64,000 bases of DNA from Octopus vulgaris (lineage: Eukaryota), in NCBI GenBank assembly GCA_951406725.2, contig OX597817.1, forward strand, positions 54,684,001-54,748,000. The letters are read 5' to 3'. Every line of letters begins with the position of its first letter. The stretch's first letter is position 1. The position numbers and the translations under genes are program-made. Below are positions 4,990-54,802 of the stretch, in pieces. Below the pieces are notes generated by a model that worked only from the letters and a program-made list of their open reading frames with translations, made no database searches and had not been told where the DNA came from.

Positions 4990-5038
<49 letters not shown>

Positions 5039-5230
5039 ATTAATATATTAATATATTCTCATATAAATATATTTATATACATATAACTATGCGCGCATGT
5101 GTGTGTGTGTATACATACATACATGCATATATATATATATGTGTGTGTGTGTGTGTATATATATGCGCGAGCGTGTGTGTGTATATATATACATACATAC
5201 ATATGTATATATATATATATATATATACAT

Positions 5231-5340
<110 letters not shown>

Positions 5341-5739
5341 CAGCACACAATTTTGGGACGACTAAAGAATTCACTGACAGAAACTCAGTAAAGATGGTTA
5401 ATAAAACTATTATTAATCGTATTAATATGACTGATGGGAATAATAACGGTACTCATATAGTGGAACATAATCCGAATGACTCTAGCGGGATAATAAACAC
5501 CCGTTTAGCTAACAATAGGAGTGAAACGCTATAGAGCCTTCGGAAGATAGTGTAAGGGAGATAACTGATCCAAAACCAAACTCATTTGAATTAAATGAAC
5601 CGAGTAGAGAATATAATAATACACCCAATTTAACCTATAAGGAAACTAATAATACCCATAGGTTAATACTTAATAATATAGACATAAACTTAATAATTCT
5701 GCCAGTAGCAAGCGTAGTGTTAATGTTAATAAGCATCTT

Positions 5740-6115
5740 TGAAACTGTACGAATAAATTACGTCTGCTTGAGATGTTTCAGAAAGAACATAGTTTAAAGA
5801 AGTCTAGTGACGGCTGATGGAATTTCTAGTTATTACATAGGATTGTGTTCTGCGGACTTTAAGCGGAGATTGTGTTACCACCTTTATTCGTTCAAAGATA
5901 GGGAAACATGATAAATTGTCCGAGGTTTAGTGGGGTCATCTGGTCTTTGAATGATAAGAAGAATAAATATCATATTAAAATGGGGAACAATTAGTAGAGC
6001 TTCACCATATACAATTTTGAACGTGAGTGTAGTTTATGCTTGGAAGAAATATTCCATATCTTTACCACTGATTATAGGTTATTAAACCACCGAAACGAGT
6101 TAGCTCTGAAATGCT
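5740..6115 (+). pseudogene. decayed Penelope-like GIY-YIG endonuclease
   Basis: Manual translation across stops and frameshifts: RCFRKNIV*RSLVTADGISSYYIGLCSADFKRRLCYHLYSFKD...SGVIWSLNDK...ECSLCLEEIFHI...LLNHRNELALKC. Confidence 0.8.
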
Positions 6116-7285
6116 CGACTTTTTTTTGCTAAGTATTTAAGTCCTTTCCAAATAAAGATTTTTAGGAGGATATCACGTAAGTAGAAGTGCTCATAGTTTA
6201 ATTTCGCTTTCTTTTGATTCCTCTCTATCTAGCTATTTATCTTATAGGTATCATCCTATCGTCATTATGAGTGGTGAATGAGGTAAATACATCCTGATCT
6301 AGTTAAGATTTCTTCTGCTATTAAGAATATAATATAATCTGTTCCTTAGATTGTAAAAGACCATTCTAAGTTTAAATGATACCATCAGCCAGTATATATT
6401 TCAAAGCAATGCCTACGATCATGTACAATAAGACTTTATGATTCCCTCATCTAGAATATACCTTAAGAACTCAGCTGAAATCCTCAGCTGCACGAAGACG
6501 TAGAATTTAATTAAATTAGAACATATGGACACATTAGTATAATTATACTTAAAATCTCCAAGAAGTTAAGGAGATAGACAAAGGACATGCTGCCTTCACT
6601 CCAAGATAGAAGTTACTAAGGTATCAAGAAGATATATACATTGTTACAGACTCTGCCTGTCACTGATTTTTTGTTTTTATGGCGTTAGTTTTAATTTATA
6701 GACTAGTTTATCAAATCTTTGTATATCTAAGGCTGAGAGAACAAAAGAGCAGTATCTGTTAGGGATAGGGCCGAGAGGGCAGACAGGAATCATATTTGGT
6801 ATAGTCATATAAATCAAGATTTATTAGAAGCAATATCATGAGGTTCGGTAAAGGAAATTCAAAGCAAGATGTTAGCTGACAATTAAGAAGGTCGCCCATT
6901 AGCAGCCCATTGACAATAAAATGGGAGTTTTATAGTTAAAATATTTTAAGCAACGTTGCAATATTGTAGACAGTTAAAGTTTAGGGTTATTCAGAGGATT
7001 ATTAAGAAGCATATTATTACAAAATTTAGAAATTTTTGACTACTTTTGAGTATATACCAAACTTTTACCACAATAGAGGGAGGAAAAGAAATTATCCAAA
7101 AATAGTTTAATATTTATACATATTGTACACTTAAATACTAACTCATCAAATGGTATCTGTGAATATTGATTAATTGGTATATTCTGGTATTAATAAAGGA
7201 GTATTGAGGTAAAAGAACATGCTAATTATATATTAATAATTATATAGCTAATTATATATAATAATGATATGCTAATTATATATTA

Positions 7286-7450
7286 GGCACAGGAGTGGCT
7301 GTGTGGTAAGTAGCTTGCTTACCAACCACATGGTTCCGGGTTCAGTCACACTGCGTGGCACTTTGGGCAACTGTCTTCTACTATTGCCTCGGGCCGACCA
7401 AAGCCTTGTGAGTGGATTTGGTAGACGGAAACTGAAAGAAGCCTGTCGTG

Positions 7451-7513
<63 letters not shown>

Positions 7514-7722
7514 CTGTGTTTGTCCTCCCAACATTGCTTGACAACCGATGCTGGTGTGTTCATGTCCCCGTAACTTAGCGGTTCGGCAAAAGAGACCGAT
7601 AGAATAAGTACTAGGTTTACAAAGAATAAGTCCTGGGGTCGATTTGATCGACTAAAGGCGGTGCTCCAGCATGTCCGCAGTCAAATGAATGAAACAAGTA
7701 AAAGAGTAAAAGAGTAAAGAGT
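7286..7722 (+). mobile_element. tRNA-derived CORE-like SINE family A, full length
   Basis: A/B boxes (TGGCTGTGTGG, GGTTCAGTC), CORE-like ttgggcaa.tgtcttcta, internal (TA)n, tail (AAAGAGTA)n. Confidence 0.85.
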
Positions 7723-9589
7723 AATAAAATTATTATCTAAGCAGTTTTAAAAAAATAAATTGTGTATATACCAGTATAGATTTATATAAGCTAAGTATGA
7801 ATTTATAGAGGTACAAAAATTAGATTAATCTTATAAATAAATAAAGGCTAATTATAAAAAATAAAGAAATAAAATAGGGCAGAACACGGTAGAAAAGGAA
7901 TAAAATAGCTTAATTACTAAAACCATGATAAAGTATATGTAACTTTATAGAAAATATAATAATTCAAAATATATTAGACTAAAAATTATATATTTACTTA
8001 TTTAGCTAATATCAATAAAAGACTGGTACCTGGTATCACCTAAAGGAATATTTAAGTCATAGGACATTCATATTTTACACTAATCTTTTTTTAAAACTAA
8101 GGGTTATATTATAGGTTTAAGAAATTATTATTATTACTCCCTACATAATATTTATAGTTTCTTAGGGGTACTTGTTTAGAAGGGTTATTTATATAAAGGC
8201 CCTTATAAATATTAAGATCAGGAGGGTAGAACCATTTATGAAAGTGATAAATCAAGTAATTTCTAAAGATCATTTCAAACAATATTGTCTTATTGTATTA
8301 AATTAAAATTTAGGATTATCAAGAAGATTATTAAGAATGATATTATAACAAAAGGATAAAATTTTATCACAATAGAGGGAGGAAAAGAAAACTGCAAAGA
8401 AATATTTTAATATTTTTTTACTTATTATTTATTTAAATATTAACTTATTATTAGATGGTTTCTATGGAGATTGATTAATTGGATTTAACTGGTATTTAAT
8501 AAGGGAGCGGCGAGGTTAAAGAACATGTTCTTTGTCTATCTCCTTAACTTTAGGTACTGAATATGTGGATGAAATTTGAATTTAACAGATTCGGTCGAAA
8601 TTCGAACACGAAACATAAATTTCATAGGTAAACTAACGCTGCAATGTTTTACTGATTCTTTCACTCCAATACACTGAGAGAGAAAAAATACTTTAAAAAT
8701 TACAAGAAATGGGGAATTGGAAAGAACTCAAGAAAGAAACGAATGAATGCCAAAACGAACAGGAAAAAAGTTGAAGAAAATGAAAACCGAAACAAAGAAG
8801 GAAATTAAAAAGAAAGGATAAGAAGAAAACTTGAAAGAAATATATGATAAATTATGGATAGAAAGATATATAGATAGGTAGGTTAGAAATGAAGTAAAGA
8901 GAAATGGGAGAAAAACAGGATTAAAGAAACGAATTAGAGTACAGAAAAAGATAAGCCAGAACTATATGATATCTATTGAAAAAAAAAATCTAAAACAGAA
9001 ATTCTGTTTATGAAAACACATTTTAATTTTACTGTAATGGAATTCTGAAATGTGTAATCATTGTTTTGCTTGAGGGTGTCAGCTACATTTATCATTTATT
9101 TACTGTTAAATGCATTTGTGTTTAGAAGTTTTTCTTTTGATCTTGATTATAAGAACTGCGAGTAGTTTTGTTTGTGCTAGGAAGTGTGCGAGGTACATGT
9201 GACATGAGCTAGATATCACCTGACGTAACACTTTAAAGATTTAAATTTGCAATCTTACCATTACTTACCATTGATTCTCTCCGTGCATTTTGTATCTTTA
9301 CCCGTCAAAAGAGCGCATCTATTAATGTTACTCTTTCTTGCGTTTCAGAATCACGCCAGCTGTAGAAAGTCTGTTGATATTTTCTTCATACCTCAAAAAT
9401 ATTTTTTTCCATACGTACCATGACTTTTGCCCCAACGCCTAGTTTTCATACATGTTCCTCTACTCCTCTCATCTGATCATTTCAAGGTGGCGAGCTGTCA
9501 GAATCCTTATTACACCAGGCAAAAAGCTCAGCGGTACGGTATTTCACCCGTTGCTACGATCTGAGTTCAAATTCCGCCGAGGACATTTC

Positions 9590-9862
9590 TCTATGTTTGT
9601 ATGTATGTATTTGTGAACATTTCTATGTTTTGCTTTATGTCTGTATTCTCATGCATATAGTTGCATATCTAGACATGCTCATATATATTTAAATGATAAA
9701 CTCCTGGAAAGTTTTACAGAGTTTTACAGTTCCAGTGACGGATTGGATCTGTAGTCTTCGAATTAGCTTTCTCCTTTCTGGATTTGAGAAGTCTAATTTC
9801 TCAAGATTGGTATTTAGGCAGTGTGTTACATATCCCAATATGTTACAGGTATAAACCTGAAC
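9590..9862 (-). mobile_element. 3' end of RLE-type (R4/HERO-like) LINE
   Basis: C-terminus ILGYVTHCLNTNLEKLDFS...RRLQIQSVTGTVKLCKTFQEFII*; next to (TACA)n/(GACA)n. Confidence 0.55.
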
Positions 9863-9886
9863 ATGTAATCTGTCTGTCTGTCTGTA

Positions 9887-9921
<35 letters not shown>

Positions 9922-11079
9922 ATGTATGTATGTATGTATGTATGTATGTATGTATGTATGTAGTGCTTAGGGTCTCGAGCTCACGGTTGTGGGGTTGAGG
10001 CATCGAATATTGAGGCCGATATTTACTGCAAGAAAGCTGCTTTATGCACAACCAATGTCTAGACAACAACCGGTGATCGATATTTAAACATCGAAAAAAT
10101 ATTAAATTTTCAATTTTCCGAAGCACATTACGGAAAAATCGTAGAAAAAATCGATATAAGTCGTTATAAATAACCATGGAAATGAATTAATCGAACGTTA
10201 GCTAATATTTTACATGTTCATTGGTTTCCATAAACATATGTAAAATAAAATTTTATTGTTATTTTCAATATTGTCCAGACGACGTTTGCTTCATTTTTAA
10301 AAATTTTCTTCTTTTCGAAGTCTTACTCTACAGAATCGGGTTGTAGTTTTATCTTCATTTCTGACTTGTATTACTTTTTCTTCATTACAATATACCCCAC
10401 CATTTTAATGTTCGTACTTATTTCAAGTTTTCTTAAACCAACATCGATTTCTGCCGAGTTCTGTCATTGAAAATATTCTCGTTTGTTTCTTTAATTCCTC
10501 TGACCTGTCTTGTCCATCAGTGTCACCATAATTACATCACTGCTCTACATTTTGAAGGTATTCGTCATCATGTATTCTTAAGACATCGTAAGCCTTGTTC
10601 TCAATCCTGATCAGAATGATTCAAGCGTGTGGTCAGACCGTATCTTTTGATTTGTAACCAGTAGGAATCAAATGAGATCTTTCAGTTGGCGTTTTCTCAG
10701 TCTCGATGCGAAGAGACAGAAAATGACATCTGAGTAAGATGCCTAGAAGTGGGATCGTACCCGAGTCTTCATCGTTGCCGAGCGAATTTCTGAACCACAT
10801 GGCTATGTAGTGCCAGCCGAGAGATACACACACATGCATAAAAATAAGAAGCAATTATGAGAAACTGAATGAGTATATGTCTTTGTGTGTGTGTTTGTGT
10901 ACATGTACACACACACACAAACACACACACACAGACACACACACGCCACACACACACATACACACACACCACACACACATACACACGCAAATACACATCA
11001 ACAGGAAACTGGACATTTTTTAGATTGCTTATTCACCATTACACAGCTTGGAATTTTAGCCTATGTATAATATATATAC

Positions 11080-16222: not shown

Positions 16223-16408
16223 TTATAACCGCAAGTTGATCAACATCTTATTTGCATATTTGATAGACAACGGCTATGACAGGACAAAATCAAAATATGT
16301 GTGTGGGTATGAATGTGTATGAGTGTGTATGAGTGTGTGTGTATCTGTGTGTGTGTGTGTTTCATAAACTTCATACTCTCTGAGATATTTTCAAACAAAC
16401 CCACATAT

Positions 16409-16600
16409 ATTATTTACATTATTTACATTATTTACATTTGACGGATATTTGTCCTCATCTTGTTTGTTGTTAACACAACGTTTCGGCTGATATACCCTCC
16501 AGCCTACATGATGTGTCTTGGGCAAATTTCGAACCTGGGTTCTCATTCTAAAGATATATTTCGATATAATTATTATTATTATTATTGTTATTATTATTAT

Positions 16601-16645
<45 letters not shown>

Positions 16646-16736
16646 GTCGTATGTAAACAAACAAGTGTGTTTTCGAAGCGTTGAAATATACTGTAGAACA
16701 AGTAGAAAGATTTTATCAAGGAGTAGATACTGAACA

Positions 16737-16770
<34 letters not shown>

Positions 16771-16862
16771 GATAAAATCCATTTGTTTTCTTTTTAAAGC
16801 AGAAACATATGCCGACAAATTTTCCTGTTTTTTTTTAAAAAAGGATTTTATCCTTCATCTAT

Positions 16863-16912
<50 letters not shown>

Positions 16913-17047
16913 TGTTCAGTAACTACACGTTGATTAAAATTCATCTATCTACTTGTTGTATATTATTATTATTATTACTCAGGTCACTGACTGGAATCGA
17001 ACACGGAATCTTGGGGTTAGTAGCCCGCGCTCTTAACCACTACGCCA
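16409..17047 (-). mobile_element. tRNA-headed HHR element, copy 1 (interrupted, HHR core mutated)
   Basis: tRNA-like head at 16979-17047; HHR region at 16472-16517 reads ATCATGT instead of CTGATGA; (ATGTAAATA)n tail; hairpin insertion in the (AAT)n linker. Confidence 0.75.
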
Positions 17048-17063
17048 CAGGCCCGTGGACCTA

Positions 17064-17335
17064 TGGCGTAATGGCTTCTAACACCAAGATTTTCAGTTCC
17101 ATTCAAGGCAGTAATCTGAATGATAATAATGATAATAAGAACATCGAAACATACCTTAGGAATGAGAACCCAGGTTCGAAATTTCCCCAAGACACCTGAT
17201 GAAAGCTAGAGGGTATATCAGCTGAAACGTTGTGTTAACAACAAACAAGATTAGGACAAATATCCGTCAAATGTAAATAATGTAAATAATGTAAATAATG
17301 TACATAATTCCTCAACTCTTAAATATAGAACTGTA
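17064..17335 (+). mobile_element. tRNA-headed HHR element, copy 2
   Basis: Degenerate tRNA head, (AAT) linker, intact HHR core, (ATGTAAATA)n, terminal ttaaatatagaactgta. Confidence 0.8.
17191..17236 (+). ncRNA. minimal hammerhead ribozyme (family 1), intact core
   Basis: GACAC-CTGATGA-A-AGCT(12 nt loop)AGCT-GAAAC-GTT-GTGTT; helix III reduced to the palindrome ACGT. Confidence 0.75.
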
Positions 17336-17370
17336 AAACCCACACATGCATAAAATTTATAATCAGATAA

Positions 17371-25397: not shown

Positions 25398-27969
25398 TCA
25401 AGTCATCCAGTCAGTTCTGTCCAATTTTGCCTTTTTTTTAGATTTGAATGAAATTTAATAGTATTTGCAAATGTCTAATTCAATTAAAAATTATTTTTAT
25501 GCTTTTGTGTACGTTTAAACTAATAAAATATTGTTTTACAAAATAATAGACGGTGTCCACAAAGTCTGCGTACATGGGGATTAACACATACTTTTAAAAC
25601 AAAACAATTTTATTTAATTATAATGTTAATAAATAATATTTTCAAAGTGATTTCCATCATTTTCAATTCATAACTTGATGCACCTTGCAATATTCAGGTG
25701 AACTTGATTAAATAAGTCTACATTGCCATCAATTTCAGCACACTGACTGGTAATGCGTTCTCTCATGTGTTTTAAATCTGTAATCTTTATTGAGTAAACT
25801 TTCTCTTTTAACATACCCCAGAAAAAGAAATCAAGGGGAGAAAGGTCTGGTGAACGAGGGGACCATTCCATATGACCCCTTCTTTTCAATCTAGTGAGGA
25901 AAAGTGTCATTAAGCCAATCTCTAACAGTTGTGGCAAAATGGGTAGGGGACCCATTCTGCTGAAACCAATTCGGAAGGCCCTCGCCTAGGCGCTCAATTT
26001 GAGATATTAATTTGTCTCTCAATATATTTGCATAAGTCTCATCCGTTACATGTTAAATGAAGAAGGGTCCTAGAACATGAGCTTTCCAAACACCACACCA
26101 AACCATCACCTTTTTGCTGCCTTGCTGTTTGGATTGATCCATCCAATGTGGATTACCTCGAGACCAGTATAGAAGATTCTGTCTGTTGACCTCACCATTT
26201 ACATAAAACGTAGCTTTTTCACTGAACTACACAAAGTTTTTCCTAAAATTGATATTTTCATCCAATTTATCTGAAAACCATTCGCACGTCTACATTCGTC
26301 TATCAGGATCGGCTTCATTTAAGTGATGCAATATCTGTAGGTTGTATCGATGAAACTTTTCCTCAACCAGCATTTTGTGGATGGTTGGTTTTGGAACACC
26401 TAACACCGTGGCTGTCCGACGAAGTGATTTCTTTGGGCTAGCAGAGACTTTAGCCTCGACAGCCTCTTTAGTTTCATCTGAAGACTTTGGTCGCCCGGAA
26501 CGGGGTTTATCCAAAACACTGCCTGTTTCTTTAAATTTCTTGATCAATTTCCTAACGGCAGTAAAATAAATAGGTTGCCTACAAGGGTGTCGAAGATTAA
26601 TTTCTTCCGCAATTTTGGGATAAGACCATCCCTCTCGTCCACTTAATAATACTAACTCGATTCTTTCTTCTTTAGACATATTCATCATTCGATCTGAGAT
26701 TCTTTCTCCTTTAGACAGAGCCATCATTCGATCATCTGTAGAAAAAAGAACAAATAAATTTAGAAAAGTAAAGTATTTTTAAAAATTTAATTTAAACAAA
26801 AGTAAAAAATTATTATTTCTTATATTTATTTGTTTATGTTATGAGTTTATTCCATAAACCCAGACTTCGTGGACAAACTAAAATTGCTTTGATTAAAACC
26901 CTTTCAACATGGAAGTATCCAAGGAGCATTTAAAGCATATATAATTCTTTATGAGTACAATAAAGGTAACTCTGCAGCCGAAGTGACTCGAAACATACAC
27001 TCAGGAAAGTGCTCGAATGAAAGAACTTGCAGGAGATCGTTTGCAAAATTGAAGATGAATATCGAACAGGACGTCCAGTTGAGTTTGATGATAAGCTCCT
27101 TGAGGCATTACTTGAAGAAAATCCGTCATTATCAGTTGAAGAATTGAGAATAAAGCTTAGTCCAAACCATACAACAGTTCATCGTCATCTTCAACAACGT
27201 GGTAAGATTCCTAAACTTGGAAAATAGGTGCCTTATGTATTGTCCGAAAGCAACCGCAAACCCCGAGTTGGCATCTCCTCTTCTCTCCATTCTCGCAAAC
27301 TCATTTCACCCTTTTTCGATAGACTTGTGATGAAAAATAGATTTTCTATCGAAATGTTAAACGTCGTAAACAGTGGCTTGGTAAAAGGGAAAATGCTCAA
27401 CCACAACCGAGAAGGGAACTTCATGGGGAAAAGGTTCTTCTCTCTATCTGGTGCGATTGCAAAGGTGTAATTCACTTTATATTGTTACTACCTAATGCAA
27501 CAATCAATGCTTAAGTCTTCTGTCAGCAATTAGAGCGTTTGAACCAAGGTTTGAAGGAAAAAAGAGCCGCTTTAGTGAGTCGAAAACGAGTGATGTTTCA
27601 TCAGGACAATGCGCAACCCCACACTGCAAAGATCACATCACAGAAGATCGAAGAGGTCGATTGGGAAAAATTTCTTCATCCACCTTATTCTCCCGACCTT
27701 GCTCCTTCAGACTACCATTTGTTTCATAGTTTACAGAATTATTAAGGGGACACAACTTTCGCAAGCCAGGAGGAGGTCGAACCTGACATTTCAGAGTTCT
27801 TCGCTTTGAAACCAAAAGAGCTTTACATTGATGGGATTGAAAAGCTTGTAAATAGATTGAAGTAAGTCATAGATAATCAGGGAAAGATGATTAACTTTCA
27901 ATTAAATACAACATTTGATCACTTGTATTCTTTATCCAAAATTCAGACAGAACTTATGGGATGACCCGA
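25398..27969 (+). mobile_element. mariner (DD34D-type) transposon, decayed, split by a nested element
   Basis: TIRs tcaagtcatccagtcagttctgtc / gacagaacttatgggatgacccga; transposase relic MEVSKEHL...GRPVEFDD...FHQDNAQPH...HPPYSPDLAPSDYHLF at 26909-27860. Confidence 0.85.
25549..26880 (-). mobile_element. Tc1/mariner DD37D (maT-like) transposon, decayed
   Basis: TIRs gtgtccacaaagtctg / cagacttcgtggaca; relic KFKETGSVLDKPRSGRP...WSPRSPDLSPLDFFFWGMLKEKVY. Confidence 0.8.
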
Positions 27970-37013: not shown

Positions 37014-37238
37014 TTATATATTTTTTATATATATATTATATATATTTATATGGTTTTCATTTAACTACAAATTGTTATATACACCTGTTTTTCTTTTAAT
37101 ATCCTCAAACAACCAAATAATCAAAAACTCACACCCTTAAGAGAGAACATTTATATATATATACACTTCTTTAACTCCCAAGAAAGAATATATATATTTT
37201 CAAAAATCAAAAGGAAAACAAACAAAAGAAAAACAAAC

Positions 37239-38471
37239 ATGACTAACTTGCAGGCCTGCAACAGACGAAATTGGTCTGATAACGAAATTGATGTTTTAAT
37301 AAATACATGGTTCTCTCTTTCCCAAACAGAAAATCTAAATGTCTTGTGTTTGAATGAGATTGCCGAAAAAACATCACAAGTGGTCAACACACGATCCGTC
37401 AAACAGATTCGTAGCAAGCTGAAACATATCGAAGTATCTTTCAAACTGATAAAAGGCCATTATGAAAAGCTTCTTCATATTTTCACAGTTCAAGAACAAC
37501 AACAGCTAGAAAATCAGCAGCCACAACAACAACAACAACAGAATGAGCCACTCCTGGTTCCCAGCACAATGGCTGACCCTAACATCGGTCAAGCACAACA
37601 ACAACAACAACAACAGCCACAGCAACAAGAACAACAACAGCCACTCCTCAACTCTAGCTTACTAGATGATTCACTAAATGCCAGTATCTTTTCACCGCTC
37701 TCACAGCAACCACCACAATTATCATCATCATCATCACCACCGCTGCCACCATCGTCTTCTATCACCAAAAATACCAACAGAAAACCAAATAAGAAACCAC
37801 TGCCCTCTTCCCCCACATCACCACCTCAATACTACTGCAGTAACAAAAACTTAAAGAAACATAGGAAGCAGAATGCCCCCCCCACAGCACAAACAAGAAA
37901 TCCCCAAATATGCCGCTATTCACTGCGCCAGAGACTCTGCACAAATAGTGACTGCATCTTCACGCATCTACCCGGCACTAGACGCACTACCGGCCAAGGC
38001 CAAAGCACGCATCCCACAATAATATCAACACCACCAAATAGTAAATCGAAATTCAAAACACACACAACTCGGAGTCCCAAAATCTGCCGGTATTCCCAAC
38101 GTGAGAGAACATGTCTACTGAGTGACTGTCCCTTCACCCATCTTCCAGGGACCCGACGCACAAACAGAAACGGGGCTTCAAGCCAACACACAAACCTGAA
38201 TAACAATAAAAATAGAAACACACCATGCTTCAGTAATGCTGGTCCAGTCTTTTCAGGAAGACACAAAAACAACAACAACAAAAGTGGAAACTACAACCCT
38301 ATCCAACAGTGCAACCACACCTCCAGCCAAAAACTGCTCCCTAAGCAGGAAAATTCTTTTTTAGCCATGTTGAACATGGCAAAAGAGATACACAAAAACA
38401 TTCTAGCCATCACTCAACACCATCCTATGCTATTACCCCAGTGCACCAATTCCCCACATTGCTGCCACTAA
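37239..38471 (+). CDS. LINE ORF1: Myb/SANT-like N-terminus, Q/S/P-rich linker, two CCCH zinc fingers
   Basis: 410 aa open frame; WSDNEIDVLINTW...RSVKQIRSKLKHI; two C-x8-C-x4-C-x3-H repeats at 37911-37967 and 38085-38141. Confidence 0.85.
   Translation: MTNLQACNRRNWSDNEIDVLINTWFSLSQTENLNVLCLNEIAEKTSQVVNTRSVKQIRSKLKHIEVSFKLIKGHYEKLLHIFTVQEQQQLENQQPQQQQQQNEPLLVPSTMADPNIGQAQQQQQQQPQQQEQQQPLLNSSLLDDSLNASIFSPLSQQPPQLSSSSSPPLPPSSSITKNTNRKPNKKPLPSSPTSPPQYYCSNKNLKKHRKQNAPPTAQTRNPQICRYSLRQRLCTNSDCIFTHLPGTRRTTGQGQSTHPTIISTPPNSKSKFKTHTTRSPKICRYSQRERTCLLSDCPFTHLPGTRRTNRNGASSQHTNLNNNKNRNTPCFSNAGPVFSGRHKNNNNKSGNYNPIQQCNHTSSQKLLPKQENSFLAMLNMAKEIHKNILAITQHHPMLLPQCTNSPHCCH
38357..38380 (+). promoter_or_regulatory. 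candidate -1 ribosomal frameshift signal
   Basis: T_TTT_TTA in ORF1 phase followed by hairpin GCCATGT-TGA-ACATGGC; the -1 frame is open from 38345 into ORF2. Confidence 0.6.
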
Positions 38472-41400
38472 CACACACAAAAAATCCAAGCCCCTTGCAA
38501 CAGTCAAAACCAGCCACTACACTAACCTCCACATTCCTACTCAATGCACAAGGTGTCAGCCCTTCCATCAATGCACAAAAATGGAAGGTCCAATTCATTG
38601 AAGACTGGGTTGGTAACCATTCACACCACATCCCTTTCTTCATTCTCACTGAGACCCACCTTGACAACTCCCACTTGGAAGCCGAAGTGAGAGTGAAGAA
38701 TTTCACAACCATCCGCGCGGATCGTATCGGCAGGAGGAAGGGTGGAACTGCCATTTTACTGCATGATTCATTTACGGCAGATGGAAATAGTATATTCTCC
38801 AACGGCTACTGTGAATCAGTCACCGTGCACAACAAAGCCAATGACCTGACAGTAATTGGGTTCTATAGGCCGCCCCAAACACCCATACTGTGCTTTCAAG
38901 AATGCCTCAACAGCATTAAGTGCTTTATTCAACAGTGCCATTCTAGCAACATACTCATGATGGGAGACTTCAATCTACCCTGTGTTGACTGGACTACAAA
39001 CTGTTTGAAACCAAGCACTCCCGCCTCAACCGCTGACAAAGAAGCAGCAGAGTCACTTTTCGACTTTACGAATGAGTTTTTCTTGTCCCAACTTGTCCTT
39101 GCACCAACAAGACATCAGAACATTTTGGACCTAGTGTTTAGTAACCACACTAACACTATACATAACGTTACAGTGGAAAAAACCCTTCTTTCAGACCATG
39201 ACATGGTTCTCTGTAACATGAAATTCCACCAGCCGAAAGCTAATCCTAGTGACCTTCCTCCAGCCCACCCATTTGACAACATGGATCTCCATAAAGCCAA
39301 CTGGGATGCAATCAGGAACGAGCTATCAAATGTTGACTGGTCCTTTACACATACACACATCTCCACCAACCATAAAACATCTTGGCAGATCTTTGTAGAC
39401 ACCGTCACAGTCATATGTGCAAAACACCCCCCACCAAGACCTGTGAACAAAAAGTGCAGAATCCCCCAAAACAGAAAAACCATTATCAGAAAAATAAAAA
39501 GAACAAACAAAAAAATTAACAAACTAAAGTACTGCCAACAGCAACACACACATTCGACGGCTATCGCACTGCTTGAATCCAAAAAATATAACCTCCAACA
39601 ATGCATGAAGACCCTCATCAATAACCAAAGATCAGCTGAGGAGAAGTGGGCCATTGAAAAAATCAAACTCAACCCCAAAGTGTTCTTTTCATTTGCGAGG
39701 AAACGCAGGGTCACTGTCTCCACTGTAGGCCCTCTAATTGACGAAACTGGCACTCTCCAAGATAATGCCAAATCCATGGCCGAGATACTGCAGAAACAAT
39801 ACTGCTCTGTTTTCAGCAATCCTGATATGGCCGATCTGGGCTGTATCAGTGATGTCAACCCCCAACACACTATATCGGACATAACGTTTAGTGCCCCTGA
39901 TGTCTTAGCGGCGATAAACGAAATAAAACACAATCCAGCAGTAGGCCCCGATAGGTTCCCTGCTTGTGTCCTGAAGGTGTGTCGACACCAACTTGCATCT
40001 CCCCTTGCTAATCTGTGGAGAAACTCACTGGATGCTGGCTATATTCCAAAAAACCTTCTGTCCCAGTCTGTTGTCCCAGTTTTCAAAAAGGGAAACAAGT
40101 CCCTTGCAGTGAATTACCGTCCGATCTCACTCACCTCTCATATCATCAAGGTATTTGAGAGGGTGGTGAGATCTCGAATAACCCAATTTCTGGAAAGCAA
40201 CAGACGGCTGATCTCCAACCAACATGGGTTCCGTAATGGAAGGGACTGCCTAACGCAGCTCCTGCATCACTTTGAGGACATTTTGAGAGCTTTGGGAGAG
40301 GGCTCCAACACCGATGTCATCTACCTTGATTTCAGTAAGGCCTTCGACAGGGTCGATCACAAGATCCTATTGAAAAAACTATACAACATTGGTGTCTCTG
40401 GAAAGTTACTGAAATGGATCAAGTGTTTCCTGACAGACAGATCTCAACATGTTGTAGTTGAAGGGGTAAAATCAAGCCCAGCCAAAGTCAGTAGTGGCGT
40501 TCCGCAAGGCACTGTGCTGGGCCCACTTCTTTTCATCATTTACATTAATGACATTAATGACATCATCAAGCACAGCAACATAAAAATCTTTGCAGATGAC
40601 TCCAAGCTACAGAAGGTCATAAATGAGGCGAGTGACCGGACATGCCTTCAGTCAGATCTACTGGCTGTTATCCAATGGGCAGAAAAAAACAATATGCTGC
40701 TGAACGAGGATAAATTTGAGCTAATCCACTTTGGAAAAGAGGATGCCCTGAAACTCCCATACTCCCTTCCTTCAGGTGAAACTCTCGCGGCGTCCAACAA
40801 CATCAGAGACTTGGGAGTAATTGTGGACAACAACATAAGCTGGGCCACTCATATAAACACCAAAGTTGACATGGCCCGCAGAATGTGTTCCTGGATTCTC
40901 AGAACTTTCCAGTCGAGAGATATCCACACCATTATCCTTCTCTTCTCCACTTTTGCCCGACCCCACCTTGAATACTGTTGTCCACTGTGGTCTCCCCACA
41001 CAATACAAGGTATCATAAAAGTTGAAGCACTTCAAAGGGCAATCACAAAAAAGATAGATGGCATGACAGGCCTCGACTATTGGGGTCGACTAGAAAAGCT
41101 AAAACTCTATTCTCTCCAACGTCGTCGTGAGCGCTACATCATCTGCATGATGTGGAAAATATTCCATCAGCATTGCCCAAATGATGTTGGCATCACCTTT
41201 AAGGTACATCCAAGGCTTGGGCCCCGTGCCATCCGCCCAAAACAAAAATCGCACTCTCATCTCATAACAACAATACGGCACAATTATTTCACCTCAATTG
41301 GCCCCGCTCTCTTTAACATTACACCAAAACACATTAAAACAGAAACTGACCCTATAGGGTTCAAGAAGTCTTTGGACAGATTCCTTCAAGAAATCCCGGA

Positions 41401-41476
41401 TAAACCCCCTACACCCGGATATGTCTCTGTAAACAATAACTCTCTACTTGAGTGGGCCATAGTGCCCAAATTCTGA
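38441..41476 (+). CDS. LINE ORF2: AP endonuclease plus reverse transcriptase (CR1 group)
   Basis: APE motifs NAQG, TETH, YRPP, GDFN, SDHD; RT motifs YRPISL, QHGFR, YLDFSKAFD, GVPQGTVLGPLLF, FADD; CR1-type tail RPHLEYCCPLWSPH, LQRRRER. The annotated start is GTG, not ATG. Confidence 0.95.
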   Translation: MHQFPTLLPLTHTKNPSPLQQSKPATTLTSTFLLNAQGVSPSINAQKWKVQFIEDWVGNHSHHIPFFILTETHLDNSHLEAEVRVKNFTTIRADRIGRRKGGTAILLHDSFTADGNSIFSNGYCESVTVHNKANDLTVIGFYRPPQTPILCFQECLNSIKCFIQQCHSSNILMMGDFNLPCVDWTTNCLKPSTPASTADKEAAESLFDFTNEFFLSQLVLAPTRHQNILDLVFSNHTNTIHNVTVEKTLLSDHDMVLCNMKFHQPKANPSDLPPAHPFDNMDLHKANWDAIRNELSNVDWSFTHTHISTNHKTSWQIFVDTVTVICAKHPPPRPVNKKCRIPQNRKTIIRKIKRTNKKINKLKYCQQQHTHSTAIALLESKKYNLQQCMKTLINNQRSAEEKWAIEKIKLNPKVFFSFARKRRVTVSTVGPLIDETGTLQDNAKSMAEILQKQYCSVFSNPDMADLGCISDVNPQHTISDITFSAPDVLAAINEIKHNPAVGPDRFPACVLKVCRHQLASPLANLWRNSLDAGYIPKNLLSQSVVPVFKKGNKSLAVNYRPISLTSHIIKVFERVVRSRITQFLESNRRLISNQHGFRNGRDCLTQLLHHFEDILRALGEGSNTDVIYLDFSKAFDRVDHKILLKKLYNIGVSGKLLKWIKCFLTDRSQHVVVEGVKSSPAKVSSGVPQGTVLGPLLFIIYINDINDIIKHSNIKIFADDSKLQKVINEASDRTCLQSDLLAVIQWAEKNNMLLNEDKFELIHFGKEDALKLPYSLPSGETLAASNNIRDLGVIVDNNISWATHINTKVDMARRMCSWILRTFQSRDIHTIILLFSTFARPHLEYCCPLWSPHTIQGIIKVEALQRAITKKIDGMTGLDYWGRLEKLKLYSLQRRRERYIICMMWKIFHQHCPNDVGITFKVHPRLGPRAIRPKQKSHSHLITTIRHNYFTSIGPALFNITPKHIKTETDPIGFKKSLDRFLQEIPDKPPTPGYVSVNNNSLLEWAIVPKF

Positions 41477-41565
41477 CTTGAAAGACTTCACCAGGTGGTG
41501 CTATTAAGTTAGACATGGCCTGGGCCAATAATGGCCGAAACCTATCAAAGTATCAAAGTATCAAA

Positions 41566-41650
<85 letters not shown>

Positions 41651-46341: not shown

Positions 46342-46660
46342 GTTAATCCAAACATGAACAAAGAGAAAACACAACAACGCGAGGACGTGGAACAAGTATA
46401 GTGTTATTGGACGCTCAGGAAAGGAAAGAAGGAGGATTTAACGTTTCGAGCAGAGCTCTTCGTCAGAAACATAGAAAAAGGAAAGGTCCAAGGAAGGGAA
46501 GACGGAGAAAGAAAATCGCCTACGATACGAACGCTGTCATCGTCAAAAGAGACCGATAGAACAGGTACTAGGCTTACAAAGAATAATTCTTGGGGTCGAT
46601 TTGTTCGACTTAAGGCAGTGTTTCAGCATGGCTGCAGTCAAATGACCGAAACAAATAATA
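46114..46660 (+). mobile_element. SINE family A interrupted by an antisense PLE repeat
   Basis: Head 46114-46277, tail 46543-46660, PLE fragment 46341-46520. Confidence 0.8.
46436..46470 (-). ncRNA. minimal hammerhead ribozyme (family 2), intact core
   Basis: GTTT-CTGACGA-A-GAGC tct GCTC-GAAAC-GTT-AAAT. Confidence 0.75.
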
Positions 46661-53392: not shown

Positions 53393-53670
53393 TTCTATCT
53401 GTTTCGACTAAAGACGGTGCTCAAACATGGCCGCAGTCAAATGACTGAAACAAGAAAAACAAAAATAAAATGACTTGATCTTCGGACACTTAAACTCTAA
53501 GTAAAACTTTACAGCTGAGGAAACTTGAGCAAAGTGAAAGGAAGTGACTTGCTTAAGAATACAACGCGCAACGCAATCTCGAAACTGAATTTACAATCTT
53601 ATATTCATGAAAGGAAAACCTTGACAATTTGAAAATATGTCTCCATAACTATTCTACGAGAATATATTTA

Positions 53671-54211
53671 CAGTAATCCCTCGACTATTGCGGGTGTTAC
53701 GTTGCAACCCCCACCCCACGATAGGTGAAAATCCACGAAGTAGAAACAGTAGTGTACTGTATATTTTAAAAAATTAGTTTTATAACATGTATGTATTTAC
53801 ATTATTTACATTTGTCAGATGGCGTAGTGGTTAAGAGCGCAGGATACTAACCCCAAGATTTCGAGTTCGATTCCAGGCGGTGACCTGAATAATAATAATA
53901 ATAACAACATTGAAAAATACCTTAGAAATGAGAACCCAGGTTCGAAATTTCCCCAAGGCACCTGATGAAAGCTGGAGTGTGTATCAGCCGAAACGTGGTG
54001 TTAACAACAAACAAGATGAGGACAAATATCCGTCAAATGTAAATAATGAAAATAATGTACATAATTTCTCAGCTCTTAAACATAGAACTGTATGTATATA
54101 TATATTTCATTATAAATGCAAAACACCACGGCGGAATCGACGTAAGCTTAAAAAATAAACCGTGATAGGTGAACCGCGATAGGTGAACCGCGATATGGCG
54201 AGGAAATACTT
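53671..54211. mobile_element. Tigger/pogo-like MITE hosting a tRNA-HHR element
   Basis: TA|CAGTAATCCCTCG ... CGAGGAAATACTT|TA; subterminal cgataggtgaa repeats. Confidence 0.7.
53820..54092 (+). mobile_element. tRNA-headed HHR element, copy 3
   Basis: A box TGGCGTAGTGG, B box GAGTTCGATTCC, (AAT)n, HHR at 53957-54002 (cleavage triplet GTG), tail as in copy 2. Confidence 0.85.
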
Positions 54212-54802
54212 TATAACAATAAGCACTTCGTCTCTCTTGTTAGCTGAGTCCTCAACTAAATCACCTTTGAAAAAAATATTCTGTGAGAATATAAGCCAAA
54301 AACTAATCCAGCTGCTTTAATTGTTATCACTAAGTGGTAAACTTCTTTATTTTAGATGGCCGAACAGAATTAAAAATTAAATTGGAGAATGAGTAATTAT
54401 CTTTTATTCCTCAGCAGTTAATTAGTTGTAGTTAAGTTAGTGTTAACATGTTTAACCTTCACAACGACTAAGTTATCGATATGCATTTAAATTTTATTGA
54501 TTTCATTTTTTTTCAGCTTAAATAAGGGCAGGGAATATCTTTGATGTAGAATATTCCATTTTTCATTCACGCTCAGAGTCACACATTCACATCCTCGCAT
54601 ACACGCACACATATCTGTATATATAATAATATTCCAATGTCGATAATTCGGCAACAAATGTCAGATGCTGTAATTGCTCTCATGCCATAAAGTTGGTCAA
54701 ACAGATAGAATCCTTTAGAATTCGATAAAACTTTACATTTTGGCCATTTTGCTCCCATTTGAGTGAGCAATCGGGGAAAGAGTAAAGGAGAGACGGAGAG
54801 AG

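Follow-up and report, generated by a model that had tools for sequence, protein, structure and literature searches.

A repeat of Octopus vulgaris with a tRNA-like head and a hammerhead motif, probably mobilised by a Penelope-like protein

A 64,000-nt stretch of the Octopus vulgaris genome (contig OX597817.1; hereafter the window) contains a MITE interrupted by a short composite element of very high copy number, whose insertion has a defined anatomy, a 9-bp flanking duplication and a two-armed build. We consider it probable that this element, which is non-autonomous and carries a predicted Pol III-type head, is mobilised by a Penelope-like protein. A first-pass annotation of the locus had suggested that the head and the ribozyme moved as a unit and that the insertion is of Penelope type. 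Both readings are supported, and more strongly than by the evidence of that annotation itself, whose account of the element did not include a second locus at 16397-17344.

The insert consists, from left to right, of a 9-bp word, an inverted segment, the head, an (AAT)n linker, the hammerhead, three 9-nt repeats, the tail and the 9-bp word again. The interrupted MITE and the insert have the following features:

53671..53787, forward strand: left arm of the MITE, flanked by TA, with a depth thousands-fold above single copy
53788..53796, forward strand: left copy of the target-site duplication, 9 bp, the last 3 nt of which also fit the inverted arm
53794..53820, reverse strand: inverted, 5'-truncated arm corresponding to 54028-54054 of the element, with its 3' end outward and without the 38-nt tail
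53819..53887, forward strand: tRNA-like head lacking its first ~6 nt, with an A box at 53820-53830 and a B box at 53864-53874
53888..53907, forward strand: (AAT)n linker from the head to the 3' module
53957..54002, forward strand: minimal type I hammerhead motif
54036..54062, forward strand: three 9-nt repeats; short 3' ends of family members lie within or close to them
54055..54092, forward strand: terminal extension (tail) of 38 nt, present on the forward arm only
54089..54097, forward strand: right copy of the target-site duplication, 9 bp, the first 4 nt of which are the last 4 of the element
54098..54211, forward strand: right arm of the MITE, with TA at 54212-54213

Removal of 53797-54097 (301 bp) from 53671-54211 leaves a MITE of 240 bp. 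Its terminal inverted repeats start at 53671 and end at 54211, the ends being identical at 18 of 32 positions in an ungapped comparison, and the TA flanks lie at 53669-53670 and 54212-54213; from the terminal motif, we take the MITE to be Tigger/pogo-like. Four of 24 listed public runs, from organisms A, B, C and E, supplied the contigs that were aligned to 53560-54340 at 80% likeness. Loose contig ends occurred at the MITE border at 53669 (149-203 contigs per run), and other copies of the MITE skipped the insert: at least five joints, among the 15 listed of 401, jumped from 53707-53772 to 54093-54098, each represented by 1-7 contigs in the 2-3 runs showing it. In two skipping copies from run X11, the intervening sequences (24 and 30 letters) were A/T-rich, like 53768-53787, and neither contained the inverted 9-mer. 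That the MITE itself carries the inverted segment, a result that the first-pass annotation had named as fatal to its reading, is therefore unsupported, and the interruption of the MITE is borne out by the terminal repeats with their TA flanks, the 240 bp remaining and the copies without the insert. Depth over 53776-53802 fell to about 1% of that of the MITE arm, which we set aside as proof because the variable middle of the MITE also drops out there. At the right end of the MITE (54174-54340), contigs from all four runs connected to one and the same unique flank; this insertion of the MITE is thus common to organisms A, B, C and E.

The 9-bp word on either side of the insert calls for caution, as 71 of 15,396 control positions also had a 9-mer in common with this flank. 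Since four of the nine bases belong to the element's own end and the word is microsatellite-like, the duplication at the MITE locus may be 5 bp long rather than 9. The inverted arm is more distinctive. Against the element's own tail region it matched at 24 of 27 positions, and against those of two further copies at 25 of 27, whereas none of the 40-mers of the window used as controls (n = 6,262) reached 23 of 27 against the element and three reached 22. The arm, 24-27 nt long, is joined to the head via a common AT; 53815-53820 can be assigned to either arm, and 53794-53796 are also common to the target duplication. The inverted tail fragment described in the first-pass annotation as lying directly 5' of the element is therefore real, and its interpretation there as a Penelope-like 5' inversion holds in part. 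The fragment is of Penelope type, being 5'-truncated, with the 3' end outward and without the tail. Rather than an inversion of the 5' part of the element, it is more plausibly one of the two arms of a single insertion, the forward copy being the other.

The element might also have moved as a unit and acquired the 27-nt inversion later, through a local DNA-repair duplication or as a chance A/T repeat. Such an origin would suit the doubled 9-mer that makes up 18 of the 27 bases of the arm, in an A/T-rich microsatellite zone, and it also draws on the facts that no contig spans the MITE locus and that the exact empty site was not seen in the four runs. It is nevertheless very unlikely in view of the control windows, of the placement of the arm, bounded exactly by the duplication on one side and the head on the other, of the second insertion in the window, which is built alike, and of opposite-strand joints at the head, which recur in all four runs. 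There, a 9-bp duplication surrounds two head-to-head copies of the element:

16397..16405, forward strand: left copy of the 9-bp duplication
16409..17054, reverse strand: inverted near-full-length copy, with its head at 16963-17054 and its body at 16409-16586, without the tail
17057..17335, forward strand: forward copy, comprising a head, a hammerhead (GUU) and a 36-nt tail
17336..17344, forward strand: right copy of the 9-bp duplication

Here, 17 of 15,397 control positions had a 9-mer in common with the flank. The two copies meet head to head through a 2-nt linker at 17055-17056, and the inverted copy ends after the 9-mer repeats, with its AAT tract split by about 375 nt. Both loci of the window thus have back-to-back arms with unequal 3' ends, and at both the tail is found on the forward arm only (38 nt at the MITE locus and 36 nt at the second). 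Inverted repeats and tracts of (TA)n and (TAC)n lie within the insert that splits the AAT linker of the inverted copy (16587-16962), and an AAT-rich word of 16-17 nt is repeated at its edges. A short near-palindrome with a 2-nt centre (17048-17063) surrounds the true 5' end of the element.

Among the run contigs, at least five joints, again among the 15 listed, connected 53819 to the opposite strand, with partners at 53862, 53927, 53939, 53971 and 54016. Each of these joints was present in two to four of the four runs, with 1-4 contigs per run and sides of 18-49 nt; the table of joints leaves unstated which way the inverted arm points, and values of likeness below 95 call for caution. In each run, 174-302 contigs had loose ends before 53819, and these agreed on a near-palindrome with a 2-nt centre, the same type of junction as at 17055-17056. 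Whether as a constant hairpin leading the element or as what is left of inverted arms, this 5' near-palindrome could be the annealing site of two cDNAs.

The head and the hammerhead were part of one insertion at the MITE locus, as the first-pass annotation had proposed, and the same join of head and body recurred at the second locus and in contigs spanning the head to the hammerhead. That annotation had used the locus to argue for a ribozyme-SINE; what the locus contributes is the mobility of the unit, and neither ribozyme function nor Pol III transcription follows from it. A different account treats the two modules as separate repeats, a tRNA-(AAT)n SINE and Penelope end-pieces targeting AAT, which fused anew at many loci. 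The modules do meet at a microsatellite, a type of site favoured by Penelope-like elements (PMC8557442), loose ends were seen behind 53904 (50-117 contigs in three of the four runs), and the depth of the body was about twice that of the head. Repeated fusion is highly improbable all the same: at both loci the head and the body lie within one duplication, their order and junction are identical in three arms across the two loci, and contigs run uninterrupted from one module into the other.

The head is predicted to be a tRNA-like, Pol III-type promoter from the anatomy of its boxes, which lie 33 nt apart, and no T4 run occurs inside the element. It presumably resembles tRNA-Arg. No RNA data set was listed as containing the element, which speaks neither for nor against its transcription. 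ARAGORN called no tRNA genes and Rfam gave no tRNA match in the window or at either locus. The boxes were compared with the Pol III consensus in PMC8969392, and SINEBase defines a SINE as shorter than 700 bp with an internal Pol III promoter and A and B boxes 30-35 nt apart (PMC3531059). A degenerate second word resembling a B box lies just upstream of the hammerhead, at 53938-53948.

The hammerhead motif at the MITE locus has a stem I of 5 bp, the core CUGAUGA (53962-53968) followed by an extra A (53969), stem II (53970-53975 paired with 53984-53989), GAAA, a C-G palindrome at 15.2-16.2, the triplet at 53995-53997 and no loop on stem III. As the first-pass annotation had noted, the triplet of this copy is GTG (GUG). 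Across the family, T makes up 96.0-99.0% of depth at position 53997; GUU is accordingly the usual triplet, and GUG a minority form. A second departure concerns stem II, where A 53970 faces C 53989 and leaves a 10.1-11.1 mismatch; position 53970 is G in 73.5-87.1% of depth in the family, which gives a conserved G10.1-C11.1 pair. Hammerheads with a G at position 17 are not known to cleave, although no statement of this rule was found in the text searched of PMC6765202, PMC6155905 and PMC1636495. The GUG triplet and the broken first pair of stem II suggest that the hammerhead of the MITE locus is likely inactive, in line with the earlier suggestion that this copy cannot cleave.

According to PMC4209133, the minimal hammerheads of Penelope-like elements have the core CUGANGA with GAAA, an extra base between positions 9 and 10.1, a palindromic 15.2-16.2 and a stem I of 4-5 bp, and they cleave weakly and as dimers only. 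The family motif shows all four of these features. They are present at 53957-54002 and at 17191-17236, and the core is decayed at 16472-16517. Both the hammerhead and the tRNA-like calls are made on motif anatomy. At gathering score, Rfam matched nothing in the window, and the two loci by themselves gave matches at chance level only; the hammerhead regions folded no better than shuffled sequences (z = -0.32 and 0.11), and in plain cofolding of two copies the active dimer fold was not the minimum-energy structure. Elsewhere in the window, an unrelated minimal hammerhead-like motif on the reverse strand (46430-46472) has C at position 7, an extra A, a 4-bp stem II and GUU, and probably belongs to another Penelope-type family.

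The family is abundant. In run X1, 38,543 of 40.6 million contigs aligned to the 781-bp stretch around the MITE. Relative to one single-copy flank contig, summed depth reached 43,000-65,000 for the head, 81,000-118,000 for the body, 110,000-247,000 near the tail and 5,000-10,000 for the MITE arms, values that give an order of magnitude and a 5'-to-3' gradient and are not copy numbers. The rise from the head to the tail region is roughly what 5' truncation would give. At about 270-280 bp, non-coding and dispersed, the element falls within the size and copy-number bounds set for SINEs in PMC3531059. Loose contig ends behind 54048 and 54059 lie within the zone of 9-nt repeats. Head-to-tail partial tandems of the pseudo-LTR type were absent at both loci of the window, and the contig joints listed included one that goes back 46 (54043 to 53998; 1-2 contigs in three of the four runs). 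The family can be assigned to octopuses, as translated copies of the 3' module bear the source names Octopus bimaculoides and Octopus sinensis, and exact-pattern scans of viral, prokaryote-genome and metagenome collections returned no matches.

An ATG-initiated frame of 55 codons is open across the 3' module (53928-54092), as it also was in 83 of 5,000 shuffled sequences. In protein searches with this frame, neither a reverse transcriptase (RT) nor a GIY-YIG domain was found among the 120 matches listed of 709, or in the 17 scanned of the 18 matches of a further protein search, and another search likewise yielded no such protein. The matches were short gene calls on copies of the repeat together with tandem repeats. 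These tandem relatives of the 3' module are 129-nt head-to-tail repeats, 37 of 45 motif spacings in the translated matches being 43 residues, and their combination of hammerhead and tail looks, as far as the translated matches show, like that of retrozymes. The 129-nt repeats occur in P0003, P0022, P0059 and P0065, on long contigs of ENA and NCBI. A predicted cysteine-rich protein of Octopus sinensis (P0072, 368 aa) starts with a copy of the 53928-54092 module, possibly through exonisation or as an artefact of the gene model.

The window also contains a near-intact LINE (37065-41566), in which ORF1 has a weak Myb/SANT match, ORF2 encodes 1043 aa with an endonuclease and a reverse transcriptase, and the tail is an 8-nt tandem repeat. 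We considered this LINE (37065-41560) as the partner of the element and rejected it, as its tail repeat is different and it has no significant similarity to the element. On the reverse strand at 26290-26778, a helix-turn-helix fragment (Pfam HTH_32) is likely the remnant of a Tc1/mariner-type transposase.

The element could still be an ordinary LINE-dependent SINE that captured a Penelope fragment, with the inversion produced by twin priming or template switching of the LINE RT. Short-ended copies of CR1/L2-type SINEs end in tandem repeats, and the octopus element is CR1/L2-like in having tandem 9-mers near its 3' end and short-ended copies that stop there; no Penelope partner, moreover, emerged from the proteins searched. 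Other features are difficult to reconcile with a LINE. The inverted arm duplicates 3' sequence that is also present in the forward arm, an outcome that, to our knowledge, L1-type twin priming never yields; the one-sided tail of 36-38 nt occurs at both loci of the window, and the LINE of the window ends in another, dissimilar repeat. Although the head and the size are those of a classic SINE as defined in PMC3531059, we therefore consider dependence on a LINE unlikely.

Mobilisation by a Penelope-like protein, the reading we favour, draws on several published traits of these elements. In PMC8557442, Penelope-like elements are described as carrying an inverted 5'-truncated copy beside their 5' end and a tail of 30-40 bp, often at one end only, and as favouring microsatellites; the one-sided 30-40-bp tail is also reported in PMC11167929. 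The two tails of the window, 38 and 36 nt long, lie within this range. A Penelope-like protein of the anole, which has a preference for A/T-rich DNA, both cuts and extends the two strands, and the tail is delimited by two neighbouring sites at which it begins reverse transcription (PMC11167929). For the one Penelope-like element tested in vitro in that study, hammerhead cleavage was dispensable for insertion.

From these traits and the anatomy of the two loci, the following course of insertion can be envisaged. In A/T-rich DNA, a Penelope protein would make one nick per strand, with about 9 nt between them, and each nick would prime one cDNA. The long cDNA, started from 54092, would copy nearly the whole RNA, while the second would start 38 nt further in, inside the 9-mer repeats, and end after 24-27 nt. 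Joining of the two cDNAs by a 2-nt microhomology (AT) would then account for the loss of the first bases of the head. The 5' palindrome may be a built-in annealing site that pairs opposing cDNAs head to head. The hammerhead would have been carried along as a passenger within the Penelope recognition module, with cleavage possible only as a dimer, and at the MITE locus it would have decayed since insertion, as its GUG triplet and broken first stem-II pair suggest.

We tentatively raise the further possibility that this abundant octopus repeat represents an undescribed class of SINE, in which a Pol III tRNA head is combined with a Penelope-like hammerhead-and-tail recognition module and which relied on the machinery of Penelope, not of LINEs, to reach 10^4-10^5 copies. 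If so, SINE partnership would extend beyond LINEs to another order of retroelements, and a major octopus repeat would be reclassified. With short, uniform insertions in the tens of thousands, the family would form a large natural data set on the inverted arms, one-sided tails and duplications of Penelope-like elements, and would bear on whether the hammerhead matters to them; the MITE locus is one decayed instance only. The separate parts of the element all have precedents, and their combination was not found in the literature searched. No description of a tRNA-headed, Penelope-mobilised octopus SINE appeared in the full-text literature searched, which covers few subscription journals and neither Repbase/Dfam nor supplements. 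The family may already have a name in the octopus SINE paper of 1994, the octopus genome paper of 2015, the paper of 2017 on hammerhead dimers or Repbase/Dfam.

Known systems close to the element include the tRNA-derived SINEs OK, OR1 and OR2 of octopuses, reportedly described by Ohshima and Okada in 1994. Compared by description alone, OK, OR1 and OR2 resemble the element in their tRNA-like head, size and abundance, and OR2 is classed as a CORE-SINE (PMC4758252); no link of these three to a hammerhead or to Penelope was found in the literature searched. Schistosome Sm-alpha and Sj-alpha are likewise short non-autonomous elements, with a Pol III-type promoter ahead of a type I hammerhead (PMC6765202; PMC6155905). 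Their hammerhead is of the canonical type, with tertiary contacts, a 6-bp stem I and a looped stem III, and they often occur in tandem, whereas the octopus element is single or head to head, with a 5-bp stem I and no loop on stem III.

The non-LTR retrozymes of animals are also short, non-coding repeats with type I hammerheads (PMC7229834; bioRxiv 10.64898/2026.07.22.740005), and have been proposed to be non-autonomous derivatives or parasites of Penelope elements (PMC7229834; PMC8969392; bioRxiv 10.64898/2026.07.22.740005). They differ in forming head-to-tail arrays with at least two hammerheads, where the octopus element has one hammerhead per unit and an internal Pol III head; the tandem form typical of retrozymes is seen only in the 129-nt relatives of the octopus 3' module.

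Penelope-like elements themselves differ from the octopus element: it has no RT/endonuclease ORF, its promoter is a tRNA-like Pol III head instead of being supplied by tandem copies, and no head-to-tail pseudo-LTR is seen at the two loci of the window. Non-autonomous derivatives of Chlamys do exist, such as MRC1 (PMC8557442; PMC11167929). Towards its 3' end the octopus element has a minimal hammerhead, as do the endonuclease-bearing groups (Penelope/Poseidon, Neptune, Nematis, Naiad and Chlamys), and the family may be among the hammerheads aligned in the supplement of PMC4209133. In the way they insert, Penelope-like elements are also alike, with an inverted 5'-truncated neighbour, a tail of 30-40 nt on one arm, an A/T-rich target and 5' truncation (PMC8557442; PMC11167929).
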